Assembly (NCBI GenBank): GCA_051251855.1
Contig: JBPOGI010000001.1
Location: forward strand, 1,344,001-1,408,000
From: Roseibacillus sp.
GTDB lineage: Bacteria > Verrucomicrobiota > Verrucomicrobiia > Verrucomicrobiales > Akkermansiaceae
Reading direction: 5' to 3'
Length of the DNA stretch: 64,000 bases
This document shows positions 30,374-58,168 of the stretch, in pieces (the stretch's first letter is position 1; every line of letters begins with the position of its first letter). The notes under the pieces are model-generated. The model was not told the DNA's origin. It made no database searches and saw only the letters and a list, made by a program, of their open reading frames with translations. Position numbers and translations under genes: made by a program.

Positions 30374-30401
30374 AAAAAGAGCCTCGATTAGGAGGCTCTT
30401 T
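30374..30401 (-). terminator. Intrinsic terminator of the respiratory operon, possibly bidirectional
   Basis: AAAGAGCCTC/GAGGCTCTTT stem with flanking A tract. Confidence 0.75.
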
Positions 30402-30431: not shown

Positions 30432-31220
30432 TTAATTGACGGCAACCTCAGGAGAAGACTCCTCTTTCGTATTACGCTTGAGAGCTGCTTCCGACTGCTC
30501 ATCAGCCCAACTGTCAAAGGAACCCTGCTTCACCACTTCCATCAACCCACGCATGTTACCATGTTGGTCGCCACAAAGCTGAGCGCACACCACATAGGTT
30601 TCGAGAGTCTTCGTCGGAGTAAACCACATCGGAATGTCCTGTCCGGGAATAGCATCCTGCTGAACACGCATTGGAACAATGGCGTAGTTGTGAATCACAT
30701 CTGTTGCCGTGACCATGACGATAGTTGGCTTATCAACCGGAACCTTCATTGTCGCTGCAGTAAAATCGTCCCATCCATTTGGATCGTCAGGGTCAATACA
30801 AGGATCCCCTACATTCGCTACCAAGTGACGGTCGATACGGCCGAACTTACCATCCTTACCAGGATAATGGTAATTCCAAGCAAACTGATAACCGATAGCG
30901 CGCACACGCACTGGGTCCTGCTTTTGAATGTCTTCATATTTATCAGTCCGTTCACGCCAGAGAGGAAAAGCAAAACCAAGAAGGAGAACTGCCTCAATAA
31001 TCACAACGCCAACCTCCAAGTGGCTCGAAACGTGATTTTTAACACCCGTATAATCCGCCTTAGGATTGCGGCGAGCAGCAAAACGCCAACAGCAGTAGAA
31101 GAAAAATACTGTCCAACCTACAAAGAGGATGAGCATGAACCAATGCACAACAGCAATCAGGTGGTCGACACCACCGCCGTGTTCGGAAAAGTTTTCGGTT
31201 ACACCGAGAAGTTCGTTCAT
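30432..31220 (-). CDS. coxB: Cytochrome c oxidase subunit II
   Basis: Two TM segments; DVIH...CAQLCGDQHGNM CuA site. Confidence 0.93.
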   Translation of the reverse strand: MNELLGVTENFSEHGGGVDHLIAVVHWFMLILFVGWTVFFFYCCWRFAARRNPKADYTGVKNHVSSHLEVGVVIIEAVLLLGFAFPLWRERTDKYEDIQKQDPVRVRAIGYQFAWNYHYPGKDGKFGRIDRHLVANVGDPCIDPDDPNGWDDFTAATMKVPVDKPTIVMVTATDVIHNYAIVPMRVQQDAIPGQDIPMWFTPTKTLETYVVCAQLCGDQHGNMRGLMEVVKQGSFDSWADEQSEAALKRNTKEESSPEVAVN

Positions 31221-31223
31221 AAT

Positions 31224-31433
31224 TTAGTGAGAGCTTTGAGGGTTGAAATCGTCTTTGTAGCGCGAGTCGAGGTTGGCTTGCTCACGGCGCATCATGCGTG
31301 CCATGAGAAACCCCACAATTCCAAGAATGCCAACGATGACGATGAGGAGAAATAAAATGGCCAAACCAGCCGCATTGCCTCCAGCAGCATGAAATGCCTT
31401 AGCACATGTGGTGCATCCGAGTATAAAGTTCAT
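31224..31433 (-). CDS. Small membrane protein with N-terminal CxxC
   Basis: GCTTC then one TM helix; tightly packed in operon. Confidence 0.7.
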   Translation of the reverse strand: MNFILGCTTCAKAFHAAGGNAAGLAILFLLIVIVGILGIVGFLMARMMRREQANLDSRYKDDFNPQSSH

Positions 31434-31445
31434 TTCGATACAGAG

Positions 31446-31649
31446 TTATAGAATTAAATTCTTGGCCTTACGGTAAAACCGCACGCCGTAATACGGCAAC
31501 AGAACTGAAGCAATCGACATAACGACGCCAAGAATCGTCACCGACATCCCGCTCCCGCGAGGAGCGAAACCAAAACACCAAACGGCAAGTCCTACACAAA
31601 GAAGGGTCGCAAAGGTAATGAAGACAAGATGGAATCCGCGTAGAGACAT
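31446..31649 (-). CDS. Small two-helix membrane protein
   Basis: 67 aa, hydrophobic, within operon. Confidence 0.7.
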   Translation of the reverse strand: MSLRGFHLVFITFATLLCVGLAVWCFGFAPRGSGMSVTILGVVMSIASVLLPYYGVRFYRKAKNLIL

Positions 31650-31657
31650 GACTTAAT

Positions 31658-32038
31658 CTACTGTGGTGGTTTCGAGGGGTCGTAGAAGCCCGACTTATTT
31701 TCCTTGGTCGTCCCTTTGCCATACTCAATGGGATCCGAAAACGCCCAAGCAGTAATTGCCATAAGGAAAACGCCAAGAACGATACCCATGATAAAGAGAA
31801 AATAAACCAGTTTTTTCTCATGGTTCAAGTGCATGAAGATTAACATCACTAACGAAGCCTTAAAGGCTGCGATCACGAGTCCCAGCACCATATCATAGAC
31901 ATCGAAACCATGTCCCCCGAAATCGAGGGCAGGCACAGTCGCAACTGCAACTGTTATACCAGTGAAAATGAAAAGGGTAAGCCCAATAAAGGTATAAAGC
32001 TTCTTAGCTTTTTGAATTTCTGCAACAGAGTCAGCCAT
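31658..32038 (-). CDS. Cytochrome c oxidase subunit IV family
   Basis: KASLVMLIFMHL motif. Confidence 0.85.
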   Translation of the reverse strand: MADSVAEIQKAKKLYTFIGLTLFIFTGITVAVATVPALDFGGHGFDVYDMVLGLVIAAFKASLVMLIFMHLNHEKKLVYFLFIMGIVLGVFLMAITAWAFSDPIEYGKGTTKENKSGFYDPSKPPQ

Positions 32039-32044
32039 GGTGAA

Positions 32045-33790
32045 TTACATCAAGTAAAGGATTGGGAAGAGGAAGATCCAGACGAGGTCAACGAAGTGCC
32101 AAAATAAGCCTCCAACCTCGACTCGGTTCGCGAGACGCTCGGGATTGTTCAAATACATTTTCTTTCCGAAGAAAAGAAAATGACCTAGGACAATGATACC
32201 ACCGATAACGTGGAGTCCATGCAGTCCGGTAATAAGGAAATAAATAGCGTAGTAGTTATTCCAACGGGGGGTGAACTTACTTTCCAAGTTCACCTCTTCA
32301 CGAGGAACGACTACTTCCGGGAAATGCTTCGCATAATCTTTCTTGTGGTTAGGGCCCGCAAATCCACTAAAGACACCCTTCTCATCATTACCCTCCCCCA
32401 TGTTCACCAATTCCTGCCATCCCATACGGTAGCGTTCAGTGTCGGTAGGAACATGCGTCGGCTTGCCATCTTTCCCCAACCCATGCTTTTTGAGAAGTTC
32501 CTTCTCCAACTCCCCGATGTGCTTTATATGTTTCTCCCAAAGCGCTTTCACCTCTGGATTATTCTTAATAATCCATGTGGACTGAATCGCAACCTCGGGG
32601 TCGATGCCCTTCTCCTCTGCTCGCTGAGCAACGAACCGAAAATCTACAGCATCAGCCGCCATCTCAATCTGGCTATGCTTGCTGTCCATCTCACCTCCAA
32701 GAAGAGTACCATCCTTAAAGCTAGCCGAAGAAGCCGTTTCGAGAACATCACGTGGCTTGAGAACAAAAGTTACCTTCGGCTCAATATTGAAAGTGACGGA
32801 TGAAGGAGCCCTAACGATAAAATCATCAAAAGCAGGGTTAAGCTCAAGTTTGTCCTTAATCTTGTAGGAAGGCTCATTACGCATGTCCTTAGGAAGATCC
32901 TTCCTAAGACGCGCCCATGCATCGCGATTTTGCTTTGTGCGAATAGCAGCATTGTGCGCTTTCGCATCGAGATGCACTTCACGGAGTTTCTTGAGAAGTC
33001 CCAAGGTAAGAAGCTCACCCTCTTTCGCCAACTCAGTCTCGGCAACTTCGGGGTTGCTTCGACCACTCACGGTTGAAGCGAGCTTCACGTCACGCTTCTG
33101 AGATTGAGCCTGTAGCATCAAATCCTGAATAGTCGGGTCGTAAAAACGCTCAAGGTCGATCGTAATCGTGTCTGCGTTGAAGATTACCTGATTGAAGTAA
33201 TGCTTCTCTTTCTTACCCTTGGATTTGCCACCATGATCGTCGGCAGACTCTTCCTTGTCGGCAACAAGAATCATGCCACTAGATTCGAAGGAGCCATTGG
33301 CATGTTCCTCGGCTTTTTTGGCGTGGGAGTCCCCATGCCCTTCGGGGTGGTAGTGTTCAATCTTCCCCTCGGAATCGATAGTGAATTTGTGAGTGTGGCC
33401 TTCCAAGACAACAAAGTCTTTCATGCGCACCGCTTGGTGACTCCACTTTGCCTTATACTCGATCCCTTTGAGGACCATAAAGAGACCAGCACAAAGTAAT
33501 GTGATCACCATGTAGACCTGAAACTGACGCCACTTGCGCATCTTGAGAGAAGCCCAAGCAAAGACGATCGTAACTGAAGAAAAGATGAGAATGAAGGTAT
33601 TGATCAAACCAGGCACCACAGGCAACGCCCGCTCTGGCCAAGGAAAGTCAGCATAGACTCGCAAGAAAACGTATCCGGAGAAGAGACCTCCAAAGAGCAT
33701 CACTTCCGATGCAAGGAACAACCAAAGGCCTACTTTTGCATTGTAAAGGCCGGTGTCCTTGCGGGCGGTAACAGTATAGGGAATATCCAT
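32045..33790 (-). CDS. coxC: Cytochrome c oxidase subunit III with large insertion
   Basis: FLASEVMLF, TGLHGLHV, FWHFVDLVW; about 385 soluble residues inserted. Confidence 0.9.
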   Translation of the reverse strand: MDIPYTVTARKDTGLYNAKVGLWLFLASEVMLFGGLFSGYVFLRVYADFPWPERALPVVPGLINTFILIFSSVTIVFAWASLKMRKWRQFQVYMVITLLCAGLFMVLKGIEYKAKWSHQAVRMKDFVVLEGHTHKFTIDSEGKIEHYHPEGHGDSHAKKAEEHANGSFESSGMILVADKEESADDHGGKSKGKKEKHYFNQVIFNADTITIDLERFYDPTIQDLMLQAQSQKRDVKLASTVSGRSNPEVAETELAKEGELLTLGLLKKLREVHLDAKAHNAAIRTKQNRDAWARLRKDLPKDMRNEPSYKIKDKLELNPAFDDFIVRAPSSVTFNIEPKVTFVLKPRDVLETASSASFKDGTLLGGEMDSKHSQIEMAADAVDFRFVAQRAEEKGIDPEVAIQSTWIIKNNPEVKALWEKHIKHIGELEKELLKKHGLGKDGKPTHVPTDTERYRMGWQELVNMGEGNDEKGVFSGFAGPNHKKDYAKHFPEVVVPREEVNLESKFTPRWNNYYAIYFLITGLHGLHVIGGIIVLGHFLFFGKKMYLNNPERLANRVEVGGLFWHFVDLVWIFLFPILYLM

Positions 33791-33811
33791 GATATCAGGA
33801 AAGTCGACAGG

Positions 33812-35713
33812 TTAGGCAACAGTAGGCTTAGACTCCTCTTTGGTTGGAGCGGACTCGGGTGCAGCCTTAGAAGGCTCATGCCACTGTGGCATGTAATCTT
33901 CATCACAATCAGGACGAGAATATTCGTAAGGACCGCGATAGACTGAAGGCTCGGTAAGGAAGTTTCCATGCCCTGGAGGCGTTGGAGTCGCCCACTCAAG
34001 GGTCGTCGCATTCCAAGGATTGTCGTTCTCAACCTTCTTACCACGGCGCCATGCGAAGAAAACGTTAAGGATGAAAGGAATCTGTGCCAGCGCGAGCAAG
34101 AAAGCGGCATTCGACATCGTGATATTGAGAGGCATATACTGCTCAACCGTATTGCCGAAGACGTTTGCACTCTCGCTCGCTTGGGCCAAGTAAGCGTCTC
34201 CTCCGTTATACCAACGACGATGGAAACCAGCCATTCCCTGCACCAACATTGGGAAGAAGAGCAAGTTAACGAAAATCAACGAAGGCCAGAAGTGAAGGTG
34301 CCCCAGAAGGTTGTTCATGTATCGGCCAGTAATCTTTGGATACCAGTGGTAGACGCCTGCGAAAAGACCAAAGAGAATACCAGGTGCTACCACGTAGTGG
34401 AAGTGACCAATCACGTAGTAGGTGTCGTGAAGGTGAAGCCCCACAAGGTTGAAGGCAAGAGGCAGACCGGTAAGGCCACCAATTCCAAACATAGGAATAA
34501 ATGCAGTTGCCCAAAGCATCGGCACTGTGAACCGAATCGAACCACCCCACATCGAGATAATAAGTGAAGTCAGAAGAATCACCGACGGAATCGAAATCAA
34601 TACCGTCGTTGTCTGGAAGAAGGTCGAAATCACGGGACCCATTCCGGTGAGATACATATGGTGAGCCCAAACAATGAAACTCAAGAAACCGAGGATAATT
34701 ACAGACCAAACCATGGGACGGTATCCCCAGAGAGGCTTACGAGTATTGCAGGGAATAATTTCCGCGACACAAGCAATGGCAGGAAGGAGAAGAACATAAA
34801 CCTCGGGGTGACCTAGGAACCAGAAAAGGTGCTGATAGAGAAGAGGACTACCACTACCAGCAACCTCCAAAGCACCACTACCTGTCACCAAACCAGAAGG
34901 CATGAAGAAAGAAGATCCAAAGACACGGTCACTCAGCTGCATCAGAGCTGCTGCTTCAAGGGGTGGGAAAGCAAGCAAAAGAAGAAAACCGGTCACCAGC
35001 ATGGCCCATACGAAAAACGGCAAACGCATCCAAGTCATCCCCTTCGCTCGAAGGTTAATAATGGTGGTCAAGAAGTTGACCGCACCAAGGAGCGAGGAAG
35101 AGATGAGAAAGACCATCGCTAGTAACCACCAAGTCTGTCCGGTCATCCACTGGTTGGGAGCACCCGCCTGTTGCAGACCAGCAAGAGGAGAATAGTTTGT
35201 CCAGCCTGATTGAGCTGCACCGGTATTGAGGAAGAAACTTGCCAACATCAACATACCGCCAACGAAGTAGAGCCAGAAACTCCACATGTTCAACTTAGGG
35301 AAAGCCATGTCGATTGCTCCAATCTGAAGGGGCATCACGTAATTACCGAAAGCGGCGAATCCAAGAGGAACCACTCCCAAGAAAACCATAATCGTTCCGT
35401 GCATCGCACCGAACATATTGTAGGTCTCCCCCTTCACCATTCCGTCCTGAAGCCAACGAGCCTTCCAGTCTGCGCTGAAAAAGAAAGACATCCACTCGGG
35501 AAGTGGCTCATGAGGATAGGCGATTGACCAGCGCATCACCATCATCAAACAGAATCCGATGAGAAGAAAAATTAGGGAAACTAATCCGTATTGGATGCCG
35601 ATCGTCTTGTGGTCAGTCGAGAAAAAATACTTCTCAAGAAAGCTCGGATTATGATGGTCATCATGGTGATGATCATCGTGAGAATGGTCTGCGGTTGGTG
35701 CTGCTGCGCTCAT
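33812..35713 (-). CDS. coxA: Cytochrome c oxidase subunit I, A1 type
   Basis: DHKTIG, MHG, GHPEVY, WAHHM, HDTYY, GHFHY. Confidence 0.96.
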   Translation of the reverse strand: MSAAAPTADHSHDDHHHDDHHNPSFLEKYFFSTDHKTIGIQYGLVSLIFLLIGFCLMMVMRWSIAYPHEPLPEWMSFFFSADWKARWLQDGMVKGETYNMFGAMHGTIMVFLGVVPLGFAAFGNYVMPLQIGAIDMAFPKLNMWSFWLYFVGGMLMLASFFLNTGAAQSGWTNYSPLAGLQQAGAPNQWMTGQTWWLLAMVFLISSSLLGAVNFLTTIINLRAKGMTWMRLPFFVWAMLVTGFLLLLAFPPLEAAALMQLSDRVFGSSFFMPSGLVTGSGALEVAGSGSPLLYQHLFWFLGHPEVYVLLLPAIACVAEIIPCNTRKPLWGYRPMVWSVIILGFLSFIVWAHHMYLTGMGPVISTFFQTTTVLISIPSVILLTSLIISMWGGSIRFTVPMLWATAFIPMFGIGGLTGLPLAFNLVGLHLHDTYYVIGHFHYVVAPGILFGLFAGVYHWYPKITGRYMNNLLGHLHFWPSLIFVNLLFFPMLVQGMAGFHRRWYNGGDAYLAQASESANVFGNTVEQYMPLNITMSNAAFLLALAQIPFILNVFFAWRRGKKVENDNPWNATTLEWATPTPPGHGNFLTEPSVYRGPYEYSRPDCDEDYMPQWHEPSKAAPESAPTKEESKPTVA

Positions 35714-35737
35714 CGTCGGAATCTAGATCAAGTTCTG

Positions 35738-36523
35738 TTAGTTTCCACCAGCATTTGCAACTGGAAGGTATGTTTCGAAGTCAATGATGGTTGCGGGATC
35801 CATCGTTTCGCCTGGAAGAAGTTTCATATGGCCGTCCAAAAGCTCTTGAGCACTCGTAGCCTTGCCGGCTCCACGCGCTTCGTAGGCATCAATTGCAACT
35901 TGGGCCTGCTCGATGGTGACGACATCACCAACGTTGTTTAGTCCATTGCGAAGATATGTCATCAAAGGTGCGAGCTCTTTCGCTGAGAGAGGTCCTTGTG
36001 CGGGCATCGCCCCATTCCATGTCTTACCAGCCACCTCGATAGGTCCTTGGACTCCGTTAAGAATAATCATTCCTAGAGCTTCGGTATTATCACCAACCAC
36101 CCACTCAGAATCAGCAAGTGGAGGAAAATTCGCTCCATCACCTTTACCGTCAGCGCCGTGACAACCAGCGCACTTACCGTAGGTTTTAGCTCCTTGCTTC
36201 ACGAAGAAAGGAAGCATCTCTCCTTCAGTAACTTCTTCGACCCCACCGGAAGTGTCTGGCTCGAAGTCATTCGCCCACATAGTGCTCTCATCGTATGCAA
36301 AGAGAGCTCCACCCTTACCGAGCACACCACCACCTACCAAAAGAGCTATACCAGCGCAAAGGAACAGCCAGAGCGGCACGGGCTCCATACCGTTTTCGTG
36401 AAGACGACGCTCACGAATCGTCGCAGGGGTCGCCCCCTCAAAAACAGCGTGCGTCTCAGCTACGTTGATCTCCTCGTCGAGGTCAGGTCGAAGCCGGGCG
36501 TTAGGTTCTTGCTCAGAAGACAT
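35738..36523 (-). CDS. Membrane-anchored monoheme cytochrome c
   Basis: One TM helix, CAGCH, GAMP axial Met. Confidence 0.9.
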   Translation of the reverse strand: MSSEQEPNARLRPDLDEEINVAETHAVFEGATPATIRERRLHENGMEPVPLWLFLCAGIALLVGGGVLGKGGALFAYDESTMWANDFEPDTSGGVEEVTEGEMLPFFVKQGAKTYGKCAGCHGADGKGDGANFPPLADSEWVVGDNTEALGMIILNGVQGPIEVAGKTWNGAMPAQGPLSAKELAPLMTYLRNGLNNVGDVVTIEQAQVAIDAYEARGAGKATSAQELLDGHMKLLPGETMDPATIIDFETYLPVANAGGN

Positions 36524-36541
36524 GGTTAAATTCGTTAGCGC

Positions 36542-37174
36542 TTACTTTTTGCGAGGGTTAAGAGAGGTCGGAATGGTATTATCCTTCCGCATCGAAAGGA
36601 GGTAGGCCGCAAGTGCTTTCGCCTCAGGCTTAGGTTTACTGGCACTTCCATTGAACATGAAAGAAAGTGACGGGCACACGGACTTGTAGTCGTAGTCGCG
36701 TGGATTGTAGAGGTGATTGAGTAGCCACTGCTCGGGTGTAATCGCCTGCTCTGCCCCTTGACGCTGTGCGCGAATCGCAACATTACTTAAGTCCTGACCG
36801 ACTCGGCCCTGACCAATGTAGGCAAACTTTTCGCCGGCAAAATCGAAAGGATTGGTCTCGCGACGGGAATCTTCGATACCTTCCGCTGCATTCGAGGGAA
36901 CACCCGCCCAGTCTTCGCGATACATGTCTGTCCCCGCATAGCTTGGACGAATCAATTGAGTGTGGCAAAGAGCACATCCATTGGCGGCATAGATGGGAGC
37001 GCCGTCAGTGCGGCCGGTCCGCTGAAATTCGTAGACACCGTCGAAGCCGTCCTGTGCCTCGTTAAAGGTAGGAGCCTCCAGATTGGCCATCTGAACATAG
37101 GGAATCGCAATTGCGAAAACCCATGGAAGTCCAAAGGCGGCGCTGAGACCGATGAGAAAAGTTTTAAAGTTCAT
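36542..37174 (-). CDS. CcoO/FixO-like monoheme cytochrome c
   Basis: GCALCHTQLIRP, GRVGQDLS, HLYNPR. Confidence 0.85.
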   Translation of the reverse strand: MNFKTFLIGLSAAFGLPWVFAIAIPYVQMANLEAPTFNEAQDGFDGVYEFQRTGRTDGAPIYAANGCALCHTQLIRPSYAGTDMYREDWAGVPSNAAEGIEDSRRETNPFDFAGEKFAYIGQGRVGQDLSNVAIRAQRQGAEQAITPEQWLLNHLYNPRDYDYKSVCPSLSFMFNGSASKPKPEAKALAAYLLSMRKDNTIPTSLNPRKK

Positions 37175-38667
37175 TATGCCTTGGCTGCTTGAAGTTCTTC
37201 AATATCACCCTCTGGGCCGTGAGGAGAATTCGCATGATGTCCCCCATCAAGCAATGTGGGATGGGTGCTTCGGCGACCAAGCCGTGCCCACATCAAAAGG
37301 AGGTGAGAGAGAAAGATGAAGTTAGCAAGGGCGATGAAGAGCCATGCGAGAGTCGTTCCCACCGCATAAGCCTTACCAAAAGTCGCAGCATCTGCCCAGG
37401 GGGCACTGGAATCATTCTGAGCACCTCCTTGGAAAGCTCCCCCAATAATGGAACACAACACGACGGCTGCGACACCATAGAGAGACAGGAAGAAATGGCT
37501 CTTGATGAATCGCTTAGACAACCACTCGCGACGAGTGACGCGAGGCACCACAAAGTAGATGAGTCCGAAAATGCACATGCTGAAAAATCCGTAAATCGCA
37601 AGAATATCGAAACCGTACCCTGTGAGACTAAATTGAGTCGCGGCAAGGCTCCCGCTCGTGTTTAAGAAGAGGCCAAAGATTCCCAAAAGAAGCATCCCAA
37701 CCATACCACCTAAGGTGAAATGAAGAGAGGGACTATTGCGAGCAGCTCCACTTTCATCCTGAAGAATCGTGCGTAAAATATTTACTGCAACCGCCAGCGC
37801 AGGAATCAAGAAAAGAACAGTCGCAGCAGCACCAACATAAGGCAAAAACTGGGGAATGGGTGCACCAGCCAATTTTTGGAAGCCAGCCCATGGCGCAATG
37901 ACCATCAAAGACCAAAAACCGAAAAGCGCCAGGTGGTAGCTGTGAACCGGCCGACCGGTGACCTTAGGTGCCAAGTAGTAAGCCGAAGAAATGGCCACCG
38001 GTGCGAGGAAGAGGAAGAGCATTCCAGAACGGAACCATTCTGAAACAGCAGCCTTCATCAAGGGATGTCCATCGAGAACGAAGACAAATAAGTGAGCGCT
38101 GAAGAAGATCCATGGAAATGCAATAATCGCGGCCAACAAATACCATTGAGAAACATAAATATGCCCCTTTTCGCGAACCTGGAACTGAATCCCCGACCAA
38201 ATGGTGGTCAAGATGTAACTAATGAGAAGCATAGGCCAAACGAAAGTAGGAAAAGCCATCCAAGTCACCCCAGTGCTACCACCCAAAAGAATACCAACAA
38301 GACCAAGACTGATAGCGATATTCCAAATGTGACCAGCAATCAAAATAAGAACACTGTTCTTCGACTCTTTGCGACAAAGACGAGCCATGAGCCAAATAAT
38401 GGCACCAAAGGCAGCCTGACAGGCCCATCCGTAAAGAAGGATATTCTGATGAGCGAGAGAGAGACGACCAGTTGTTGCCCATGCCGCATCTCCGAGGAAA
38501 TCCGGTGAGTGGCTCTTGAAAGAGGAAGCAAATCCAAGAAGCACCGCAACGAAAAGCCAAAGGGCTCCGCTGGTGAAAAAGAACATCACCGGGTGCCGCA
38601 GCGAGCGGTCGATATCGGCGCGCAATTTGGCGTCCTTGGGATCAGAATTCTGTGCAGTTGCAGACAT
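37174..38667 (-). CDS. CcoN-like heme-copper oxidase subunit I homologue lacking active-site ligands
   Basis: GRL..AHQN, HIYVSQWY, YYLAPKVTGRPVHSY, WAG retained; His ligands replaced. Confidence 0.85.
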   Translation of the reverse strand: MSATAQNSDPKDAKLRADIDRSLRHPVMFFFTSGALWLFVAVLLGFASSFKSHSPDFLGDAAWATTGRLSLAHQNILLYGWACQAAFGAIIWLMARLCRKESKNSVLILIAGHIWNIAISLGLVGILLGGSTGVTWMAFPTFVWPMLLISYILTTIWSGIQFQVREKGHIYVSQWYLLAAIIAFPWIFFSAHLFVFVLDGHPLMKAAVSEWFRSGMLFLFLAPVAISSAYYLAPKVTGRPVHSYHLALFGFWSLMVIAPWAGFQKLAGAPIPQFLPYVGAAATVLFLIPALAVAVNILRTILQDESGAARNSPSLHFTLGGMVGMLLLGIFGLFLNTSGSLAATQFSLTGYGFDILAIYGFFSMCIFGLIYFVVPRVTRREWLSKRFIKSHFFLSLYGVAAVVLCSIIGGAFQGGAQNDSSAPWADAATFGKAYAVGTTLAWLFIALANFIFLSHLLLMWARLGRRSTHPTLLDGGHHANSPHGPEGDIEELQAAKA

Positions 38668-38670
38668 GAC

Positions 38671-39318
38671 TTAGAGAGCAGAAGGGTCAGCGGGTTTAAA
38701 GAGAGTCTCCGGGCGAGGGGCTTGCGGAGCTGGAGCGGGAGATTTCTTAGCAGCGGGAGCTGGCTTCACTTCGGGAGCTGGTTTCGCTTCAGGAGCTGGT
38801 TTCGCTTCGGGAGCTGGCTTCGCTTCGGGAGCTGGTTTCGCTTCAGGAGCTGGTTTCGCTTCGGGAGCTGGTTTCGCTTCAGGAGCTGGTTTTGCTTCAG
38901 GAGCTGGTTTCGCTTCGGGAGCTGGCTTCGCTTCAGGAGCCGCAGCCTCGTCCGAGCTCTCCCCTTCTTCTGCGGGAGCCTCCTCGGCAACTGTCGCAGG
39001 GTCGCGGAACATGTCGTTCTTCATTGCCAAAGGCTTGCTGCTCACCCACTTGGCTCCAACGAGGGCAAAAACCTCTGAGGGAGGAACTTGAAGCTTGTCG
39101 CCATTCTCAACACGCTCAAAATTTTTGAGCTGCTCAGCTTCTACAAGCTCCCTTACCGCAAGACGGCGAGTCGCGCCGGCCTCATCAGCGGCAGTCACTT
39201 CAGGGGAACTGACCATAGGAGCTAGAATGAGTGCAATAATACCGAAGAGCAGAAAGGCTCCCAGCACGAGCCAAAAGGCCGTGAATCGCTTGATTGGTGT
39301 ATCGTTCGTAGCAGACAT
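38671..39318 (-). CDS. ActG-like single-pass protein with APEAKP repeat tail
   Basis: Follows actF; one TM helix; LQVPPSEVFALV resembles the ActG core. Confidence 0.6.
   Translation of the reverse strand: MSATNDTPIKRFTAFWLVLGAFLLFGIIALILAPMVSSPEVTAADEAGATRRLAVRELVEAEQLKNFERVENGDKLQVPPSEVFALVGAKWVSSKPLAMKNDMFRDPATVAEEAPAEEGESSDEAAAPEAKPAPEAKPAPEAKPAPEAKPAPEAKPAPEAKPAPEAKPAPEAKPAPEAKPAPEVKPAPAAKKSPAPAPQAPRPETLFKPADPSAL
38756..38940. repeat. 18-bp coding tandem repeat, 10 copies
   Basis: GGAGCTGGYTTYRCTTCR x10, encoding APEAKP on the minus strand. Confidence 0.95.
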
Positions 39319-40671
39319 TTAGTTGTGAACGTTGGCAGATTCGAGAATACGAGGATCGCGATGCGGATAGAGCGAAACCGAGGTGATATTGCGGAGCAAG
39401 AAGAAGACAAATCCACAGCCGACAATGAAGAAGGCAATTAAGTCGCCAATCCAAGCACCGGGCATCCAGAGCTTAGGGTCGTGAGAAACAACATTTCCAA
39501 CCGAAGGACCGCGCTCAGGAATGATCATGTGGTAGATATCGAGGAAGTGCATGAAGAGAAGGTATCCCGCAATCGCCAACATGAAGTTATTCTTCTTCTT
39601 CAGGTCTGAACGAAGAAGCAACAAGAACGGCGCCCCAAAATGCCCTAAGACGAGAACGTAACTGAGAACATTCCAGTTTTCAGTGTTCCGAAGAATGAAG
39701 TAACGGGTCTCCTCCGTGACATTCGCATACCAGTAAAGAAAGAATTGTGAGAACGAGATATAGGCCCAGAAGATGGTAAAAGCGAAGATGAGCTTACCCA
39801 TTAAATGGTCGTGCTCAGCAGTGACCACCTTCTTCATGAAGCCAGCCTTCCGAAGAAGAATACTGACTATCAAAATGACCGCCATGGAGTTCAAAGCACT
39901 ACCAGCGAAGATGTAAACACCCCACATGGTAGAGAACCAAGTGTAGTCGAGGCCCATCACCCAATCAACACCGATAAAAGTGAGAGTCACTCCAAAGATT
40001 GCGATTCCCCAGGAAGACATCGAGCGAGCCTTAAAAAGGCGGTCAGTTCCTGGCGAAGGACAAGTATCTTGGTCGACTGACAACTTACGGAGCTTCCAAA
40101 TCACGAAGCCGAGACCAAGGAAGAAGATCACGAAGCGAGCGTGCCAGAATTCAAGGCTGAGATACCAAATCTTGGCAATCAACATTCCGTCATGTTTAGC
40201 AGCGCGAGCTTCAAGTCCTGCTGCCGCACTGGTATCTTCAAGACCATAGTCCTTCGCATACTGAATTGCGGTTTTGTGCTCAGTCATCCACTCGAAAAGG
40301 AATGTCTGAACACTTGGGAAAAGAAGAGGAAGGGCGAAGATGAACATGAACGGGAAAACAAAGCCCACGTTCTCAAAAATACGGCGAACTGAAGTCCCCC
40401 ACCCTGAATTCGACACGTTGTGAAGCAGCGTCCAAAAACAACCACCCAAAGCAATCGTGAAAAAGTAGAAAACGGCAAATAACCAAGAGAAGGAATAGTT
40501 ACCTTTCAGTTCGCTAGGTTTCTCTGGATTATGTCCCCAAAGGAAAACTGCGCTGGCAAGCAAGCCGATCAAAGCGACCGCTCCACAAACAAGCATCATT
40601 AGCTGAACCTTGCTCTTCGGCAATTGTTCTCCATTAACCGGAATATCGGCGGATGTTACTCTATGTCCCAT
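39319..40671 (-). CDS. actF: Alternative complex III subunit F
   Basis: DWVMGLDYTWFSTMWG, HLMGKL, SQFFLYWYANVTEET. Confidence 0.9.
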   Translation of the reverse strand: MGHRVTSADIPVNGEQLPKSKVQLMMLVCGAVALIGLLASAVFLWGHNPEKPSELKGNYSFSWLFAVFYFFTIALGGCFWTLLHNVSNSGWGTSVRRIFENVGFVFPFMFIFALPLLFPSVQTFLFEWMTEHKTAIQYAKDYGLEDTSAAAGLEARAAKHDGMLIAKIWYLSLEFWHARFVIFFLGLGFVIWKLRKLSVDQDTCPSPGTDRLFKARSMSSWGIAIFGVTLTFIGVDWVMGLDYTWFSTMWGVYIFAGSALNSMAVILIVSILLRKAGFMKKVVTAEHDHLMGKLIFAFTIFWAYISFSQFFLYWYANVTEETRYFILRNTENWNVLSYVLVLGHFGAPFLLLLRSDLKKKNNFMLAIAGYLLFMHFLDIYHMIIPERGPSVGNVVSHDPKLWMPGAWIGDLIAFFIVGCGFVFFLLRNITSVSLYPHRDPRILESANVHN

Positions 40672-41327
40672 TACTGTCCTTCCCCTTTCTGTCCCAAATC
40701 TTCTGCTGAAACCTCGCGGGCTTCTTGCATCGCACGCACATAAGCGACAATCGCCCAGCGGTCTTCAACTGGAATGTTCATGCCGTAGGCACCCATCATT
40801 CCCTTACCGTGAGTAATCACGTGATAAAGCATCCCATCAGGGTAGCTCTCAGTTTGAAACGTTCCTTCGTGCAAATTACGCACTCCGGTCAAACCCAACT
40901 TTGAAACAGTGCCGCCTCCGTCGCCGGACTCACCGTGACAAATAGCACAGAAGATTCCGTAGCGGTCATGGCCACGAGCAAAAAATGCTTCTGCAGTCTC
41001 TGCCGTGAGCGCTAACTCTTCGGGCATCCCTGTTCCGTAATAACCTTCCGTCAAACCGGTGTAGTAGTAGCCGGTGCGACCTTCGCCGAACTCCACCGAA
41101 AAGACACCGTCATCACCTGAATTAGGAATGGTGCCCACTACTGGGAGGCGTGAGCCTTTGCCATCTTCGAAAAAGTCGTTTGGCTTTTGCCCCTTGACCT
41201 TATCCTGCTCGTCCATATCTGGGAAGAGACGGAAAGGTGGACGCTCGAACTTACTGCCCGGAATCCCGAAGATTCCGACAACCGCCAAAGCGATGAAGGC
41301 GTAGACTATGAAAAAGTATTTGAGCAT
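40671..41327 (-). CDS. actE: Alternative complex III subunit E, monoheme cytochrome c
   Basis: PDMDEQ, CAICH, GKGMM, DRWAIVAYVR. Confidence 0.9.
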   Translation of the reverse strand: MLKYFFIVYAFIALAVVGIFGIPGSKFERPPFRLFPDMDEQDKVKGQKPNDFFEDGKGSRLPVVGTIPNSGDDGVFSVEFGEGRTGYYYTGLTEGYYGTGMPEELALTAETAEAFFARGHDRYGIFCAICHGESGDGGGTVSKLGLTGVRNLHEGTFQTESYPDGMLYHVITHGKGMMGAYGMNIPVEDRWAIVAYVRAMQEAREVSAEDLGQKGEGQ

Positions 41328-41336
41328 GGTTTTGCT

Positions 41337-41891
41337 TTAGTTTTCGTCTTCGACCAGTTCGATGTTAGCTCCGCCGATTTCGTCGAGGAGCGCCTTTGTT
41401 CCCTCCGCAGAGAACTTGGGGTCGCGTGCTTCGATAGAAATAAAGAATCCATCGTCGGTTGCGCGGGCGAACTGCTTACTAGCAAACAAAGGGTGATTAA
41501 GGCGTGGCAACTGCATCAGACCAAGAAGTCCAAACAAAGTAGTGAAACCTGAGAAAAGAACCGTCAGCTCGAACATGATCGGGAAGAAGGCTGGGACGGT
41601 GAAGATGTTTGCGGGTTTTCCCTGAACCACCGTGGGATAAATCTCGACTTGAGTAATATAGGCAAGGGCAAGAGCGGTACAGAAACCAGTCAACCCTCCA
41701 AAAAAGACGAAGTAAGGAAGGATTGAGCGCTTAATCCCCATCGCATCATCGAGACCGTGAATAGGATAAGAAGAGTGGCAATCCCACTTCTCGAAACCCG
41801 CATCGCGAACTTTCTCTGCTGCCTTGTAGAGCTTCGAGGCACTCTCGAATTCTGCCAAGTAACCGTAAACTCGTTTGACCGTGGTGCTCAT
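41337..41891 (-). CDS. actD: Alternative complex III subunit D (DUF3341)
   Basis: YPIHG, PIMFELTVL, DGFFISI. Confidence 0.9.
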   Translation of the reverse strand: MSTTVKRVYGYLAEFESASKLYKAAEKVRDAGFEKWDCHSSYPIHGLDDAMGIKRSILPYFVFFGGLTGFCTALALAYITQVEIYPTVVQGKPANIFTVPAFFPIMFELTVLFSGFTTLFGLLGLMQLPRLNHPLFASKQFARATDDGFFISIEARDPKFSAEGTKALLDEIGGANIELVEDEN

Positions 41892-43381
41892 CAGACTTTT
41901 GCCTCCCCATTTTCAATTTCAAGTTGATAGGCAGGGATAACCTCTGTGCCTTCGTCAACATGCTCTTCGTTATCTTCGAAGTGCGGGTCGCTTTCCAGCT
42001 TGGTCCACTTCACCTCCGCAATGTTAATGCAGGGCAAGAATCGGAGGAAGAGAAGGAAGAGCGTTAGGAACATTCCAATCGTGCCCACGAAGAGCATAAT
42101 GTCGTTTCCGCTTGGGTAGAAATACTTCCAGTCGCCAGGCAACCACATGCGGGAAAGAGTCGTGACAATAATCACAAAGCGTTCGAACCACATGCCGATG
42201 TTCACACACATACAAACTGCCATCACAACCCAGAGATTCTCGCGGCATTTTTTCCACCAGAAAATCTGAGGAGAAATTACGTTACAAGCCATCATGGTGA
42301 AGTAGGCCCAGTTGTAGGGACCAGCGATACGGAACTTGAAGGCTTCCATCTCATATTTAGCCGCTCCGTAGAACGCCATGAAGAGCTCCATAAGATAGGC
42401 GTATCCAACAATGGAACCGGTCAGGAGGATGATTTTCGCCATGTTATCGACGTGCTTCATCGTGATGAGGTCACTGAGGCCGTAGATGAAGCGAGCAGGA
42501 ATCATGATGGTCAATACCATCGCAAATCCGCCGAAAATCGCACCAGCGACAAAGTAAGGTGGGAAAATGGTGGTGTGCCATCCGGGAACGACAGAGGTCG
42601 CGAAGTCAAACGATACCACGGAGTGAACCGAGAGAACGAGTGGTGTCGAAAGAGCAGCCAAAAGCAAGTAGGCCATCTCATAGTGAGACCAGTGACGGTT
42701 CGAACCACGCCAGCCCAAACTGAAGACTCCGTAAAGAAGCTTACGAATCTTTCCAGTCGCTCGATCACGAATAGTCGCAAGGTCAGGAACCATTCCGAGA
42801 TACCAGAAGATAAGAGAAATGGTAAAGTAAGTCGAAACCGCGAAAACGTCCCAAAGAAGCGGAGACTTGAAGTTCTGCCAAATCGCGTTCGGGTTTGGAA
42901 TAGGAGCTAAATACCAAGCCATCCAAACACGACCAACGTGGAAGGCTGGGAAAATACCTGCGCACATCACCGCAAAAATGGTCATCGCCTCAGCGGCTCG
43001 GTTAATCGAGGTCCGCCAGTTCTGACGAGTCAGGAAGAGAATGGCCGAAATCAGCGTTCCTGCGTGACCAATACCAATCCAGAAAACGAAGTTTACAATC
43101 GGCCAACCCCACATCGCACGGTTGGAGTTTCCCCAAACGCCTACTCCAGTAGAAACAAGCTGGAACAAGCCCCCTCCCACTCCGATGGCTGCGATAAGAG
43201 CACAAGGAATGAAGAGCATCCACCAAAGCATAGGCTGGGGATTTTCGACCACTCCACAGATCCGCTCCGTGATCCAATTGTAGGACCGCTTGTTGAGAAT
43301 CAACTTCTCACGTTCAAGAACGGGCAACTTGGGCCCTTCTCTCTTCGCTGAAGTCTCGTTACTGACTGTTGCTTCCGCCAT
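41891..43381 (-). CDS. actC: Alternative complex III subunit C (NrfD family)
   Basis: [41 protein letters not shown]. Confidence 0.95.
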
Positions 43382-43387
43382 GCCCTA

Positions 43388-46300
43388 TTAGTGAATGTTG
43401 ATGGTCGCTTGTCCCACGCTCTTCGCGTCGGGCATTGCTGTGTTAGGATTTTTCACCCGCGCCAGGTAACTGGTCCGTGGCAAGGTGCCGATATAGTTCA
43501 AAAGGTCGTAGTTGCGCTGCGAGTTCTTAGCGCGCACCATGGCAGACTTGTCGCCGTCAAGCTTGTTACCGAAAGTAATGGCTCCTGCTGGACAAGCGTC
43601 CTGACAGGCCACCTTCGCAGAATCAACCTTGATGCGAAGGTCTTCGTTAGAAATCTCAACGCTAGTAGAAGCGACTCCAAGAGACTTCTTCCGAGTAATT
43701 TGTTTCTGCTTAATTTTAGCATTCTCAAGACGCTGCACGCAATAGGTGCACTTCTCCATCACCCCGCGCATGCGCACAGAAACGTTCGGGTTACGTTGAA
43801 GAGAGCGAGAATCACCCACCTGCTTCTCGCCCCAAGGACCCTTGTAGAGATTCTTCTCAACAAGAGGATTGCGCTTGTTGTAGTCGAAGAAGTTGAAGCG
43901 ACGTGCCTTATAAGGACAGTTATTCGCGCAGTAGCGGGTTCCGATACAGCGGTTGTAGGCCATCGCGTTGAGACCTTCCTCGGTGTGAACCGTTGCGTTG
44001 ACGGGGCAAACTACCTCACAAGGAGCAAGCTCACACTGCTGGCAAGCAACAGGCTGAGGAATCATCTCTGGATTATCCTCATCTCCATCAGGAGTCGCAG
44101 CATAGTAGCGGTCCATCCGAATCCAGTGCATTTCGCGACCTTTCGCGACTTGCTCTTTACCAACGACAGGAATCGTATTCTCAGACTGACAAGCGACCAA
44201 ACAAGCGTTGCAACCCATGCAAGTATTGAGGTCAATCGCCATCGCCCACTGGTGAATTTCATCCGAAATCAGTGGCTTACCCTCAGTATCGTTGGGCTTG
44301 TAGATGGAGTGATTCTTCGGCATGTGCGAATCCATGCCTTGCTTCGCGACCTTCTTGAGTTGGGTCTTGAAGTCCTTGGTGCCGTGACCTTTTGTCTCGA
44401 CATCAGCGGTAGAAATTTCACGAGCGAGCGCGCGACCATACATCGCGTGGTGCTCTTGGGTAAGCGCTACCGGATAGCGACCTGAATTCTTAGCAACCTT
44501 GGCACCGGTAGCGGCCCAAAGAGCGTCGAAGTTGCGGAGAGGATAAACGTTGAAGCCAGCATTGAGCCCCACATCACCAACCGTTGGCTGAGCAGAATTA
44601 AACTGAATGGCTCCACTACGGTCTTCATCGTCTGTTGCCTGCCCATAACCCACTGGAAGAACGATGGTGTTTTCAGCGAGACCAAAAGAAACAAGGACAG
44701 GCAGCTTAACTGATTTGCCACCGAGCGTGACATCGATCATGTAAGCACGAGCCTTTTCCCCTTCTCCAATCTCAGGACGGGGAGAGTTCTTAACGTCGAC
44801 CCCTGCCACATTGTTAATGGGCTCGAGCTCAACCAACTCCTTAGAAATTCCCAAAGCATCGGCTGTTTTGGGAGAAATGTAAGCGACGTTGTCCCAAGTG
44901 AGCTTGGAAATCGGGTCGGGAGCCTCTTGCAACCATGAGTTATCGATGTAGCGACCGTCCCAAACGGAAGCATCAGCTGCGAAAATCACATCCAAGGCAT
45001 CTTTGGTCGGAGCAGCTGCCTCGAGAGCTTTGCCAGGGTTAGCATTTACGTTAGGAGCCTTAGCTTCGGGATAAGTAGCATCAACGAAACCTTCTTGAAG
45101 AGCCTTTGCCCAAGAAGAAGCGTCTTTGCCAACAGCGGCATCAAAGGTCTTGCGAACTTCATCGTAGCCCGCAGAAGGAGTCGTTTCGTCACCCAGCTTC
45201 AGCTCGCCTCCATTAAGAAGTGCGCTCAACAATTCTAGCTCGCCCACTCCGTCATAGAGAGGAAGAATCAGAGGTTGAATCAGAGCATGGGTTCCTTTTG
45301 CCGTTTTGGCATCCGACCAGCTTTCCAAGTAGTGAGCGGCAGGAACGTGCCAAGTGGTAGCGTAAGAAGTTGCATCGGTGCGAAGACCCAAATGAATGGA
45401 AGTCTTCACCTTGCCGAGCAACTCCTTGAAATTAACATCCGCAGGAGAATCGTAAACAGGGTTACTAGGGGTGAGGAGAATGAGAGTCTCCAGCGCGCCT
45501 CCCTCAAGGTCCTTCACCAACTGAGTGAATCCAGCAAAGTTCTTCGTTCCGGTTTGAACGAGAGTGGCAGGCTTTCCTTTTCCAACGTTACCAAGAGCAA
45601 CGTTGATAGCGGCAACCACCTCATGGAGTTCTTTGGACTGACGGCTACCCGCAAGAACCACAGACTTGCCCTTGTTAGACTGTAAGTCCTTCGCACACTC
45701 AGCGACCCACTTGGCATCGGACTCTGAAAGAGAAACATCTCCTTGAACCTTCGCTCCAACAGCCTTGCCAACTGCAGTTGCGATCTTAATAAACTGACTT
45801 GGAGCGATGCGAAGACGATGATCAGCTACCCCACCAGTGAGAGAGTAGGCTGCCTCTACCTGGTAGAGACGGTTCATCTCCTCCGCCTTCATCTCGTGGG
45901 CGTAAAGCTTGTCCTTATCGTGCGCACCACCTTGACGGCGGTCGAAGAACGGCTTCACAGGACCAACTTGGTCAAGTGAGGTGAAATCGCAGTCGAAAGA
46001 AAGAATGCGGTCCGCTTTTTCGAAATCAACCACCATGCGAACTCCAGCGCCAAGAACCTCTTCAGAAGCGTGACTCTCTAGAGCCTCGTAACGGTAGGCC
46101 TTGGCCGCGGGAAACTTCTTTTTAATTTCGCCCCAAACACGATTGCGGGTCGGGCTGTCATCTTCTCCAAAAACAAAGCCTACTTTACCAGGATTCGCAG
46201 AGAGCTCCTTGAGCGCAGCATCCAATTCGGCACGAGTAGACTTTTTACCGTCCTTGAGGACATCCTTGGAACGGAAGGGATCGTAAAGATTGAGAATGGA

Positions 46301-46738
46301 AGCCTGAGTGAAAGCATCAGTTCCGCTTGCGTCTGCAAAAGCGTTGTTAGGCTCCAACTTGGTGGGGCGACCCTCGAAAGTGGTCACCACCAAAGGAACC
46401 GCTCCTCCTGGACGAGGCATGGTGGTCGCGTAATAGAGAGCCTTTCCGGGAATCACCCACTCAGGAGCCTGGGTATAAGGAACAATGTAAGTCTCTGGGC
46501 GACGACAAGACGCCAAACCAAAACCGGCAAGTGCTGAGGAAGCACCCATCAATTTGACGAAACTACGACGGGAAAGCTCGCGCTCTTCTTCGGTCAACTC
46601 GCCGCTTTTCTCGGGAAATTCGCGATGCAGCCAATCCTGAAACAGAGGATTACCTTCCAACTCGGCGGGACTGCGCCAAACCTGAGTCTCCAGCTCGTCA
46701 GCGGGCACTTCAGGATGATTCCAAACTCGTTTACTCAT
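43388..46738 (-). CDS. actB: Alternative complex III subunit B
   Basis: Tat motif SRRSFVK, molybdopterin-oxidoreductase-like body, Fe-S motifs CMGCNACLVAC and CIGTRYCANNC. Confidence 0.95.
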   Translation of the reverse strand: MSKRVWNHPEVPADELETQVWRSPAELEGNPLFQDWLHREFPEKSGELTEEERELSRRSFVKLMGASSALAGFGLASCRRPETYIVPYTQAPEWVIPGKALYYATTMPRPGGAVPLVVTTFEGRPTKLEPNNAFADASGTDAFTQASILNLYDPFRSKDVLKDGKKSTRAELDAALKELSANPGKVGFVFGEDDSPTRNRVWGEIKKKFPAAKAYRYEALESHASEEVLGAGVRMVVDFEKADRILSFDCDFTSLDQVGPVKPFFDRRQGGAHDKDKLYAHEMKAEEMNRLYQVEAAYSLTGGVADHRLRIAPSQFIKIATAVGKAVGAKVQGDVSLSESDAKWVAECAKDLQSNKGKSVVLAGSRQSKELHEVVAAINVALGNVGKGKPATLVQTGTKNFAGFTQLVKDLEGGALETLILLTPSNPVYDSPADVNFKELLGKVKTSIHLGLRTDATSYATTWHVPAAHYLESWSDAKTAKGTHALIQPLILPLYDGVGELELLSALLNGGELKLGDETTPSAGYDEVRKTFDAAVGKDASSWAKALQEGFVDATYPEAKAPNVNANPGKALEAAAPTKDALDVIFAADASVWDGRYIDNSWLQEAPDPISKLTWDNVAYISPKTADALGISKELVELEPINNVAGVDVKNSPRPEIGEGEKARAYMIDVTLGGKSVKLPVLVSFGLAENTIVLPVGYGQATDDEDRSGAIQFNSAQPTVGDVGLNAGFNVYPLRNFDALWAATGAKVAKNSGRYPVALTQEHHAMYGRALAREISTADVETKGHGTKDFKTQLKKVAKQGMDSHMPKNHSIYKPNDTEGKPLISDEIHQWAMAIDLNTCMGCNACLVACQSENTIPVVGKEQVAKGREMHWIRMDRYYAATPDGDEDNPEMIPQPVACQQCELAPCEVVCPVNATVHTEEGLNAMAYNRCIGTRYCANNCPYKARRFNFFDYNKRNPLVEKNLYKGPWGEKQVGDSRSLQRNPNVSVRMRGVMEKCTYCVQRLENAKIKQKQITRKKSLGVASTSVEISNEDLRIKVDSAKVACQDACPAGAITFGNKLDGDKSAMVRAKNSQRNYDLLNYIGTLPRTSYLARVKNPNTAMPDAKSVGQATINIH

Positions 46739-46757
46739 CTTGGGCGTAAAATTCTAA

Positions 46758-47486
46758 TTAGCGGTGACAGGTAGCGCAGCTCTCTTTGGGCTTCACATTC
46801 CAGTGTGCCTTCAGGTAATTCCCGAAATCGGTCTGGGACTCAATGGCGTTGCCTTTCGCATCCTTGATGGGATTGGCCTTCAAATACTTCTCAACGTCGT
46901 AATCGAGGTTAGTCACCTCTTCAATAGGACGAAGATGCTCCTCGGGGGCTCGGTGACAATCAAGACACCATCCCATTGAAAGAGACTCTTCATGATGAAC
47001 AATCTTCATCTTATCAACGTCACCGTGACAACTCTGACAAGAGACCCCGCGGTTTACGTGTGCAGAGTGGTTAAAGTAGACATAATCGGGCGCCTTGTGA
47101 ACACGCACCCACTCAAGAGGAACCGGCGTCACTTCAGCACCGCTTTTTTGGTCAATGCCCATTGCAGCGTAGAGAGGAGAAAGCTTTGGACTATCCGACT
47201 TTACCTTGTTGGGTCCGTGGCAATTCCAACAGACATTCGCCGATGGCACATTCGCGTGGGAACCATGCTCTACAAAACTGTGACAGTAACGACAATCCAT
47301 CCCCAACTGGTTCACGTGAATCTCGTGACTGTAAGGGATTGGTTGGGTGGGTTGGTATCCGACCCGTAGTGAGCTTGGGTTAATGTAGACCGCAAACACA
47401 AACGTCACTCCGAACGCAAGAGCCCCGAGGCAAATTGCGAGTTTGAGTGGTGTAAAATTGGACCAACGAGGAAAGAAATTCGCCAT
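46758..47486 (-). CDS. actA: Alternative complex III subunit A, pentaheme cytochrome c
   Basis: Five CxxCH: CRYCH, CWNCH, CQSCH, CLDCH, CATCH. Confidence 0.95.
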   Translation of the reverse strand: MANFFPRWSNFTPLKLAICLGALAFGVTFVFAVYINPSSLRVGYQPTQPIPYSHEIHVNQLGMDCRYCHSFVEHGSHANVPSANVCWNCHGPNKVKSDSPKLSPLYAAMGIDQKSGAEVTPVPLEWVRVHKAPDYVYFNHSAHVNRGVSCQSCHGDVDKMKIVHHEESLSMGWCLDCHRAPEEHLRPIEEVTNLDYDVEKYLKANPIKDAKGNAIESQTDFGNYLKAHWNVKPKESCATCHR

Positions 47487-47507: not shown

Positions 47508-47550
47508 TTGTGAAATTTTTCACAAGCTCAGTTTGTGAAATTTTTCACAA
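47508..47550. promoter_or_regulatory. Two identical palindromic operators (Rex-type; also fits CRP family)
   Basis: TTGTGAAATTTTTCACAA at 47508-47525 and 47533-47550, just upstream of actA. Confidence 0.8.
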
Positions 47551-58158: not shown

Positions 58159-58168
58159 ATTTTAAGAA

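Follow-up and report, generated by a model that had tools for sequence, protein, structure and literature searches.

A cbb3-derived module predicted to be catalytically dead, retained in the alternative complex III operon of a Roseibacillus species

The stretch considered here (the window) comprises 64,000 nucleotides of a Roseibacillus sp. genome (Verrucomicrobiota, Akkermansiaceae; assembly GCA_051251855.1, contig JBPOGI010000001.1, forward-strand positions 1,344,001 to 1,408,000) and carries a respiratory operon of 16 intact open reading frames on the minus strand, running from actA (47486) to coxB, the last gene (30432), with intergenic gaps of −1 to 24 nt. A complete alternative complex III (ACIII) is followed by a CcoN/CcoO/CcoP-like module and then by an aa3 oxidase; all gene coordinates below are window positions on the minus strand. 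The arrangement from actA to coxB recurs in all 38 close-relative loci that span both ends, in exactly this order in 35, so the operon is neither an assembly artefact nor a product of chance, and the sixteen tightly packed, co-directional genes of a preliminary description stand. The nearest named relatives of the CcoN-like protein, hereafter CcoN′, belong to Roseibacillus (85–91%). The parts are of known kinds; what is new, judged from the sequences, is a selected, expressed and catalytically dead cbb3 module in an ACIII operon. We posit, with a probability of roughly 0.55, that this module serves, without catalysis of its own, as a scaffold for cytochromes through which electrons leave ACIII.

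The ccoN′ gene (37174..38667) encodes a protein that aligns along roughly 400 residues with Pseudomonas stutzeri CcoN (3MK7) and keeps one of its six metal-binding histidines, the equivalent of His60 (His73 in CcoN′). The replaced positions correspond to His207, His257, His258, His345, His347 and Tyr251, which we take to be the three CuB ligands, the haem b3 ligand, the second haem b ligand and the cross-link tyrosine of the P. stutzeri enzyme. The tyrosine column in helix VII holds Ala, and a hydrophobic residue occupies the place of the high-spin haem histidine. Ligands, tyrosine and the curated CcoN model TIGR00780 (83 bits; cut-off 583) all place CcoN′ outside the cbb3 enzymes, and the fold places it within: an AlphaFold2 model (pLDDT 88.9) has the 12-helix CcoN fold and matches 3MK7 with a TM score of 0.84. 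By these residues, no haem b3-CuB site can form in CcoN′, and the preliminary claim of a cbb3-derived module unable to bind its own active site is borne out by the loss of five of six histidines and the tyrosine. The module shares with P. stutzeri cbb3 the fold, the N-O-cytochrome gene order and the CxxCH motifs, but lacks the ligands for CuB, haem b3 and the second side of haem b as well as the cross-link, has lost a ccoS-like gene, carries a Cys in CcoO and has gained histidines; CcoN′ is 32–38% identical to the intact, divergent cbb3 copies linked to ACIII and to a paralogue in its own genome.

Among the window copy and 59 close relatives, all of them ligand-less, 171 positions are at least 90% conserved, His73 is invariant (60/60), cytoplasmic motifs at both termini do not vary, and the old ligand columns are free to vary among the relatives. 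Altered catalysis, for example NO reduction through a different ligand set, has a precedent in the several NO reductases with changed ligands that arose within the superfamily (PMC11214002, whose accessible portion does not mention Verrucomicrobia); with a hydrophobic residue in place of the high-spin haem ligand, drifting ligand columns and no conserved substitute set at the old site among the 60 aligned sequences, it is highly improbable for CcoN′. Five other histidines (His25, His113, His455, His469, His483), likewise invariant (60/60), are new: their columns lack His in most intact copies. They probably lie toward the cytoplasmic side, going by helix position in the predicted model. A new metal site common to all dead CcoN proteins was considered and rejected, these histidines being mostly absent outside the family.

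The product of ccoO′ (36542..37174) is a monohaem cytochrome whose CxxCH motif is kept, as it is in 58/58 family copies and in 25/25 ligand-less copies of the locus sample described below. Its distal Met, in the S-x-M-P motif, is replaced by Cys167: alignment to solved CcoO structures puts the Cys onto that Met, and the position is Cys in all 58 family copies versus Met in 18 of 19 intact ones. By sequence, CcoO′ thus has the CxxCH but not the distal Met of a cbb3 subunit. Ligand-less CcoO proteins outside the family mostly keep the Met (21/25). The third member of the module, a CcoP-like membrane-anchored monohaem cytochrome c (35738..36523), retains its His/Met motif and scores below the cut-off of the ccoP model.

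A thiolate-ligated haem in CcoO′ and a histidine cluster in CcoN′ would suit a neofunctionalized sensor of redox state or gas, or a unit for haem or copper binding or delivery. The constancy of Cys167, of the five histidines and of the terminal motifs, together with the cytoplasmic placement of the histidines in the model, argues for such a role. These features, however, are largely confined to the family and its nearest relatives; the other ligand-less lineages retain the module while keeping the Met and lacking most of the new histidines, and the operon has no partner regulator gene. We therefore treat a sensor or delivery function as a tentative and, on balance, unlikely explanation.

A survey of operon conservation, proposed in the preliminary description, covered 301 genomes of the phylum, 94 of which matched CcoN′. 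Sixty regions were fetched around matches picked for family spread; 50 include actF, and the other 10 hold intact CcoN copies, nine of them away from ACIII and one cut by a contig end. In all 50 Verrucomicrobiia loci with actF, ccoN and ccoO follow it; the cytochrome gene is present in 49 and coxA in just nine. Because of this difference, and of the mRNA levels given below, the module is tied to ACIII and not to the oxidase, and the earlier notion that it sits as a link to the oxidase as well has been corrected.

CcoN is fully ligated in 25 of the 50 ACIII loci and ligand-less in 25, through substitutions that differ by lineage. Intermediate states occur at loci L142, L171 and L038: CuB ligands or the Tyr lost with haem ligands kept and, in the ligand-less CcoN of L038, retention of both haem b histidines; CcoN matches in Planctomycetota are all intact (19/19). 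A small ccoS-like gene between actG and ccoN follows the same division, being present at 25/25 intact versus 0/25 ligand-less loci and, in a named, partly overlapping set, at 17/17 intact, 0/50 ligand-less and 2/2 partly degenerate ones, and it persists in L142 and L171; these counts include kin, so numbers of loci are not numbers of independent events. Pfam FixS is the best match for two of four seeds of this gene, the others matching FixQ weakly. On an ActC tree nine state changes are needed, five of them forced, and a single origin of ligand loss is rejected (p-AU 4.8e-7; 28 rows); a CcoN tree requires two or three changes and is compatible with a single origin (p-AU 0.109; 31 rows). Repeated ligand loss is likely on these trees, and replacement of cassettes within operons may be an alternative. 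At one locus (L074) the act genes are separated from ccoN′ by an inserted NosZ-like gene cluster; a layout of this kind has been described for a Methylacidiphilum species (bioRxiv 2024.01.15.574570).

Loss of a maturation gene fits a cofactor-free protein and would be expected if the module were purely structural, stabilizing ACIII or a supercomplex or aiding its assembly, with haems that carry no physiological flux. The membrane fold is indeed kept, and in Methylacidiphilum fumariolicum SolV the transcript level equals that of ACIII. Yet haem attachment motifs persist in every ligand-less CcoO examined, the CcoP-like protein keeps its His/Met pair, and ACIII functions without such a module in Rhodothermus marinus and Flavobacterium johnsoniae (PMC5928083), which leaves a haem-independent role doubtful. 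The nearest laboratory parallel comes from Rhodobacter capsulatus, whose ccoS mutants contain a fully assembled, inactive cbb3 (PMC5742617): both cases involve a CcoNOP assembly without a working site, there as a laboratory defect, here fixed and selected.

Selection on the module can be read from synonymous and nonsynonymous change (dS, dN). For ccoN′, dN/dS is 0.03–0.05 against four Roseibacillus loci, with dS near saturation; it is 0.13–0.24 in five other ligand-less pairs versus 0.02–0.12 in four intact pairs. Purifying selection acts on the dead copies; the constraint is relaxed but strong. ccoN′ is kept in all 53 CoxA-bearing genomes of a family sample of 61, and its family matches contain no internal stops. 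A decaying relic that survives only because the operon around it is essential would account for the long branches and for amino-acid change faster than in intact copies; it is already largely refuted, and most improbable, since every ligand-less pair measured has a dN/dS well under 1, stops are absent, and conservation extends over the 171 positions noted above. Moreover, the ccoS-like neighbor was deleted cleanly, so deletion at the site of the module is possible.

Expression data are available for SolV (proteome and transcriptome from the supplement of PMC10205796; means of transcripts per million, TPM, in a methane reactor). Its single annotated CcoN, MFUM_v2_0384, retains one of six histidines and lacks the Tyr, as read by eye. 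Mean TPM is 40–85 for actA-G (actC 46, actD 43, actF 40), 36, 49 and 58 for ccoN′, ccoO′ and the cytochrome gene, and 264, 552 and 454 for coxA, coxC and coxB; with coxA mRNA about 7-fold above that of ccoN′, the module follows ACIII in transcript level rather than the oxidase. Neither relaxed selection nor lack of expression, which the preliminary description had named as grounds for abandoning its proposal, undoes it: dN/dS is low for the window copy, and its orthologue in SolV is transcribed.

The ACIII genes are ordinary in kind and form a complete set. They comprise actA (46758..47486), a pentahaem cytochrome c whose five CxxCH motifs recur in 55/55 homologues; actB (43388..46738), a Tat-exported subunit with CISM-like and Fe-S parts; actC (41891..43381), the quinol-binding NrfD-type subunit (E 1.7e-176 to R. 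marinus 6F0K); actD (41337..41891; Pfam ActD, E 4.9e-59); actE (40671..41327), a monohaem cytochrome c with a hydrophobic N-terminal anchor; and actF (39319..40671), likewise NrfD-type (6F0K_F, E 4.6e-47). Pfam and NCBIfam assign actA, actB, actC, actD and actE. The next gene (38671..39318) is actG-like, encoding a single-transmembrane (TM) protein with a Pro/Ala/Glu/Lys repeat tail, which a profile search matches weakly to Chloroflexus ActG (8K9E_G, E 0.0047). A c-haem motif occurs at the actG position in 28/49 family loci and is lacking in the window copy, whose tail (window about 38740–38945) is a tandem six-residue Pro/Glu/Ala/Lys repeat; a cytochrome c domain stands in its place in many relatives, with two haems in one case. 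No match to bc1 cytochrome b (PF00033) was found in five genomes, the window's own (95% complete) and four relatives, in keeping with ACIII standing in for bc1.

The oxidase that ends the operon has, in coxA (33812..35713), an A1-motif subunit I with six histidines, the His-Tyr pair, XGHPEVY and the D-channel Asp/Asn and, in coxB (30432..31220), a CuA subunit II with Gln for the usual Glu of the CuA motif. The K-channel lysine, called essential in PMC8079940, is missing: the K362 equivalent is Leu380, and Leu, Ile or Val stands there in 64/64 members of one clade of sampled sequences that includes two of 151 Planctomycetota genomes, ten lysine-less rows falling on a single branch of an unrooted tree (SH-aLRT 100). 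Like the 'KC-channel' A1 enzymes of Elusimicrobia, Ca. Calescamantes and Methylacidiphilaceae (Degli Esposti et al. 2021, PMC8239418), CoxA combines the A1 motif and D-channel with a hydrophobic residue at K354/K362, and it groups with the Methylacidiphilum enzyme, SolV CoxA sharing its signature motifs; the assignment is by the lysine-site residue and this grouping. The accessible supplement rows of PMC8239418 include no Akkermansiaceae, and the window type further differs in its invariant glutamates and in that no other intact oxygen reductase was found in 23/53 genomes. A-family enzymes without the lysine, those of Methylacidiphilaceae among them, had been listed already (PMC8239418 supplement; bioRxiv 2020.03.01.968255): the oxidase is atypical, as first described, but its lysine-less kind is catalogued from sequences.

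Compensation probably lies within the oxidase, in a Ser/Thr plus glutamate route. Ser374, six residues before the lysine site, and Glu253 are present in 64/64 clade members; Glu253 aligns with Ala247 of Rhodobacter sphaeroides CoxA, between O2-channel residues (the residues flanking Ala247 are placed in the O2 channel in PMC4256069). CoxB keeps Glu69 at the K-channel entry and has a second buried glutamate, Glu76, in 51/51 family sequences versus Pro in lysine-bearing neighbors (3/3). Among the best 150 cluster representatives (P0001-P0150), Ser/Thr at −6 accompanies a hydrophobic lysine site in 38/39, and the lysine occurs without it in 86/87 and with it in 1/87. Glu253 as a general replacement for the lysine was rejected, since it is present in 8/42 lysine-less representatives. 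The same representatives contain a second A-family type, in which Gln or some other polar amino acid replaces the lysine. The shared occurrence of both oddities in 53/53 CoxA family genomes and in SolV might suggest that CcoN′ partners the oxidase and supplies the missing proton route. This is very unlikely: lysine-less CoxA stands beside an intact CcoN at L039, ligand-less CcoN occurs with lysine-bearing CoxA (L066, L068 and Opitutaceae-type loci), and the oxidase has compensating residues of its own.

Between coxA and coxB lie coxC (32045..33790; Pfam), a subunit III with an insert of about 390 residues of no recognized family; subunit IV (31658..32038; Pfam COX4_pro, and TIGR02229 above cut-off); a 67-aa, two-TM protein that travels with the lysine-less oxidase (31446..31649); and a 69-aa protein with one TM segment and an N-terminal CxxC (31223..31433), conserved in 49/49 homologues (36 found by pattern search and 13 read by eye) and a candidate copper-handling factor. 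The CoxC insert (about residues 115–505) has conserved spots in 56 aligned sequences, is probably periplasmic by topology, and gave no protein family match and no usable ESM Atlas match; it is possibly a tether to ACIII. That the oxidase has several non-standard features is confirmed here by Leu380, the CoxC insert and a bare CoxB encoded last. Genes for a haem A synthase and a Sco protein lie away from the operon (C1:1455968-1456957 and C9:38451-38768).

Set against the ACIII-caa3 and ACIII-aa3 supercomplexes of R. marinus (6F0K) and F. johnsoniae (6BTM), the operon has the same actABCDEF(G) order followed by an A-family oxidase, the same lack of a detected bc1 and a short-type subunit III. 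In such supercomplexes subunit II or ActA carries an additional cytochrome domain that forms the bridge (PMC5928083, PMC8361435, PMC4013037). By its genes, the operon differs in the three-gene cbb3-derived module placed between the two enzymes, in a CoxB without a cytochrome c domain (absent from 50/50 CoxB sequences), in an ActA limited to five haems, in the CoxC insert and in the terminal position of coxB. Neither CoxB nor ActA offers such a domain here, and the cbb3 relic supplies candidate carriers.

On the scaffold reading, the operon would encode a quinol-to-O2 chain without bc1, in which ACIII oxidizes quinol and the lysine-less aa3 enzyme reduces O2. The module would descend from a working ACIII-linked cbb3 (ccoS-ccoN-ccoO-monohaem ccoP), still intact in many Verrucomicrobiia, whose active site has since been lost; CcoN′ would still form a unit with CcoO′ and the CcoP-like cytochrome next to ACIII, acting as a membrane scaffold poor in cofactors. 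Electrons could then pass from quinol through ActC, ActB, ActA and ActE to the CcoP-like cytochrome, held by CcoN′O′, and on to CuA and the aa3 site; in many relatives an ActG-fused cytochrome would also accept them from ActE or ActA. His/Cys-ligated c-haems have low potentials, and the CcoO′ haem, probably of low potential too, would lie off the main path in a structural or buffering role.

Several observations weigh against this proposal. Most ACIII loci have their oxidase genes at another place in the genome, and co-location and co-transcription are no proof of contact. The uniform Met-to-Cys change in CcoO′ is ill-suited to a simple high-potential wire, and a few other ligand-less CcoO proteins have His or Arg in place of the Met (3/25). 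A pure scaffold does not account for the new invariant histidines of CcoN′. Selection holds CcoN′ somewhat less tightly than intact copies (dN relative to ActC 2.7 versus 1.9), and the Roseibacillus estimates suffer from dS near saturation. A bolder synthesis, which we offer as speculative and rather unlikely as a whole, would have a haem-copper oxidase turned, probably more than once, into a non-catalytic subunit, which in Akkermansiaceae then became, through an outer thiolate c-haem and an inner His site for metal or haem, a transmembrane sensor of redox state or gas, or a unit that handles cofactors; it would sit within a supercomplex of ACIII with an aa3 enzyme that is the sole working oxidase and lacks the K-channel lysine.

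Adjacency of ACIII and cbb3 genes in Verrucomicrobia has been published and taken to mean a working oxidase (PMC8498564, PMC10205796, bioRxiv 2024.01.15.574570); in the accessible parts of the full-text literature we found no account of a ligand-less CcoN, of ccoS co-loss or of a Cys-ligated CcoO. SolV has been described as having a high-affinity cbb3, yet its sole annotated CcoN lacks the active site. Bacteria credited with cbb3 may have none, which would correct published oxidase inventories and change ecological inference. The warning that annotation would wrongly report a cbb3 oxidase applies to SolV and not to the window's own genome, where the call is right because two intact cbb3 enzymes are encoded elsewhere; for relatives without them it is wrong. 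One of the two is a canonical CcoN-O fusion on contig C9; the other, at C7:580597-583503, is an intact ccoS-ccoN-ccoO-cytochrome cluster with all ligands, followed by a heavy-metal ATPase-like gene. This closest paralogue of the dead module (32% identity to CcoN′) represents the parent subfamily of CcoN′, and few of the 53 genomes in the family sample showed a third COX1-family gene of its type.

In 23 of those 53 genomes CoxA and CcoN′ are the only COX1-family matches, leaving no other cbb3, and no bd oxidase match was found; the lysine is absent in 20/20 checked. At 95–98% completeness, these genomes may hide some second oxidases. The complete chromosome of Luteolibacter sp. Populi likewise has CoxA and CcoN′ as its sole COX1 matches and no bd oxidase. 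A bd oxidase was also not found in the window's genome and four relatives (0/5); a search for alternative oxidase (AOX) gave no match in any genome, but none in the control either, and so has no bearing here. The 23 genomes point to cultured aerobes whose sole oxygen reductase seems to be an A-type enzyme lacking the lysine, and with them the long-standing question of a proton path to the active-site tyrosine without the K-channel lysine becomes directly testable in a natural enzyme. If our reading of CcoN′ is true, a widespread haem-copper pseudo-enzyme exists in intact, half-lost and dead states within one phylum.

Control of the operon may involve Rex. Two putative Rex-type operators (consensus in PMC2883068), both perfect palindromes, precede actA: TTGTGAA-N4-TTCACAA at 47533..47550 and a second box at 47508..47525, 21 nt upstream of the actA start, and a Rex-family gene is encoded on contig C9. 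At least one such box occurs in 32/41 close-relative loci with upstream DNA, and only in 2/49 loci of the wider sample. Identical perfect boxes elsewhere in the genome (C1:20084, C1:1148046, C6:373008, C7:141412 and C7:488424) precede genes that, by sequence reading, are nuoG, nuoD, nuoB, atpB and a prenyl-diphosphate synthase; boxes before nuo genes, atpB and actA suggest control by the NADH/NAD+ ratio and, likely, a respiratory Rex regulon in Akkermansiaceae. A sigma-70 promoter scan gave fewer sites than shuffled sequences. A terminator-like hairpin lies 3′ of coxB (30376..30401, minus strand; −17.6 kcal/mol over a 45-nt segment) and is not among the entries of a consensus terminator scan. 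Farther along the window (56455–60886), three plus-strand genes have N-termini that, by eye, resemble an NADH-dependent formate dehydrogenase or hydrogenase set.

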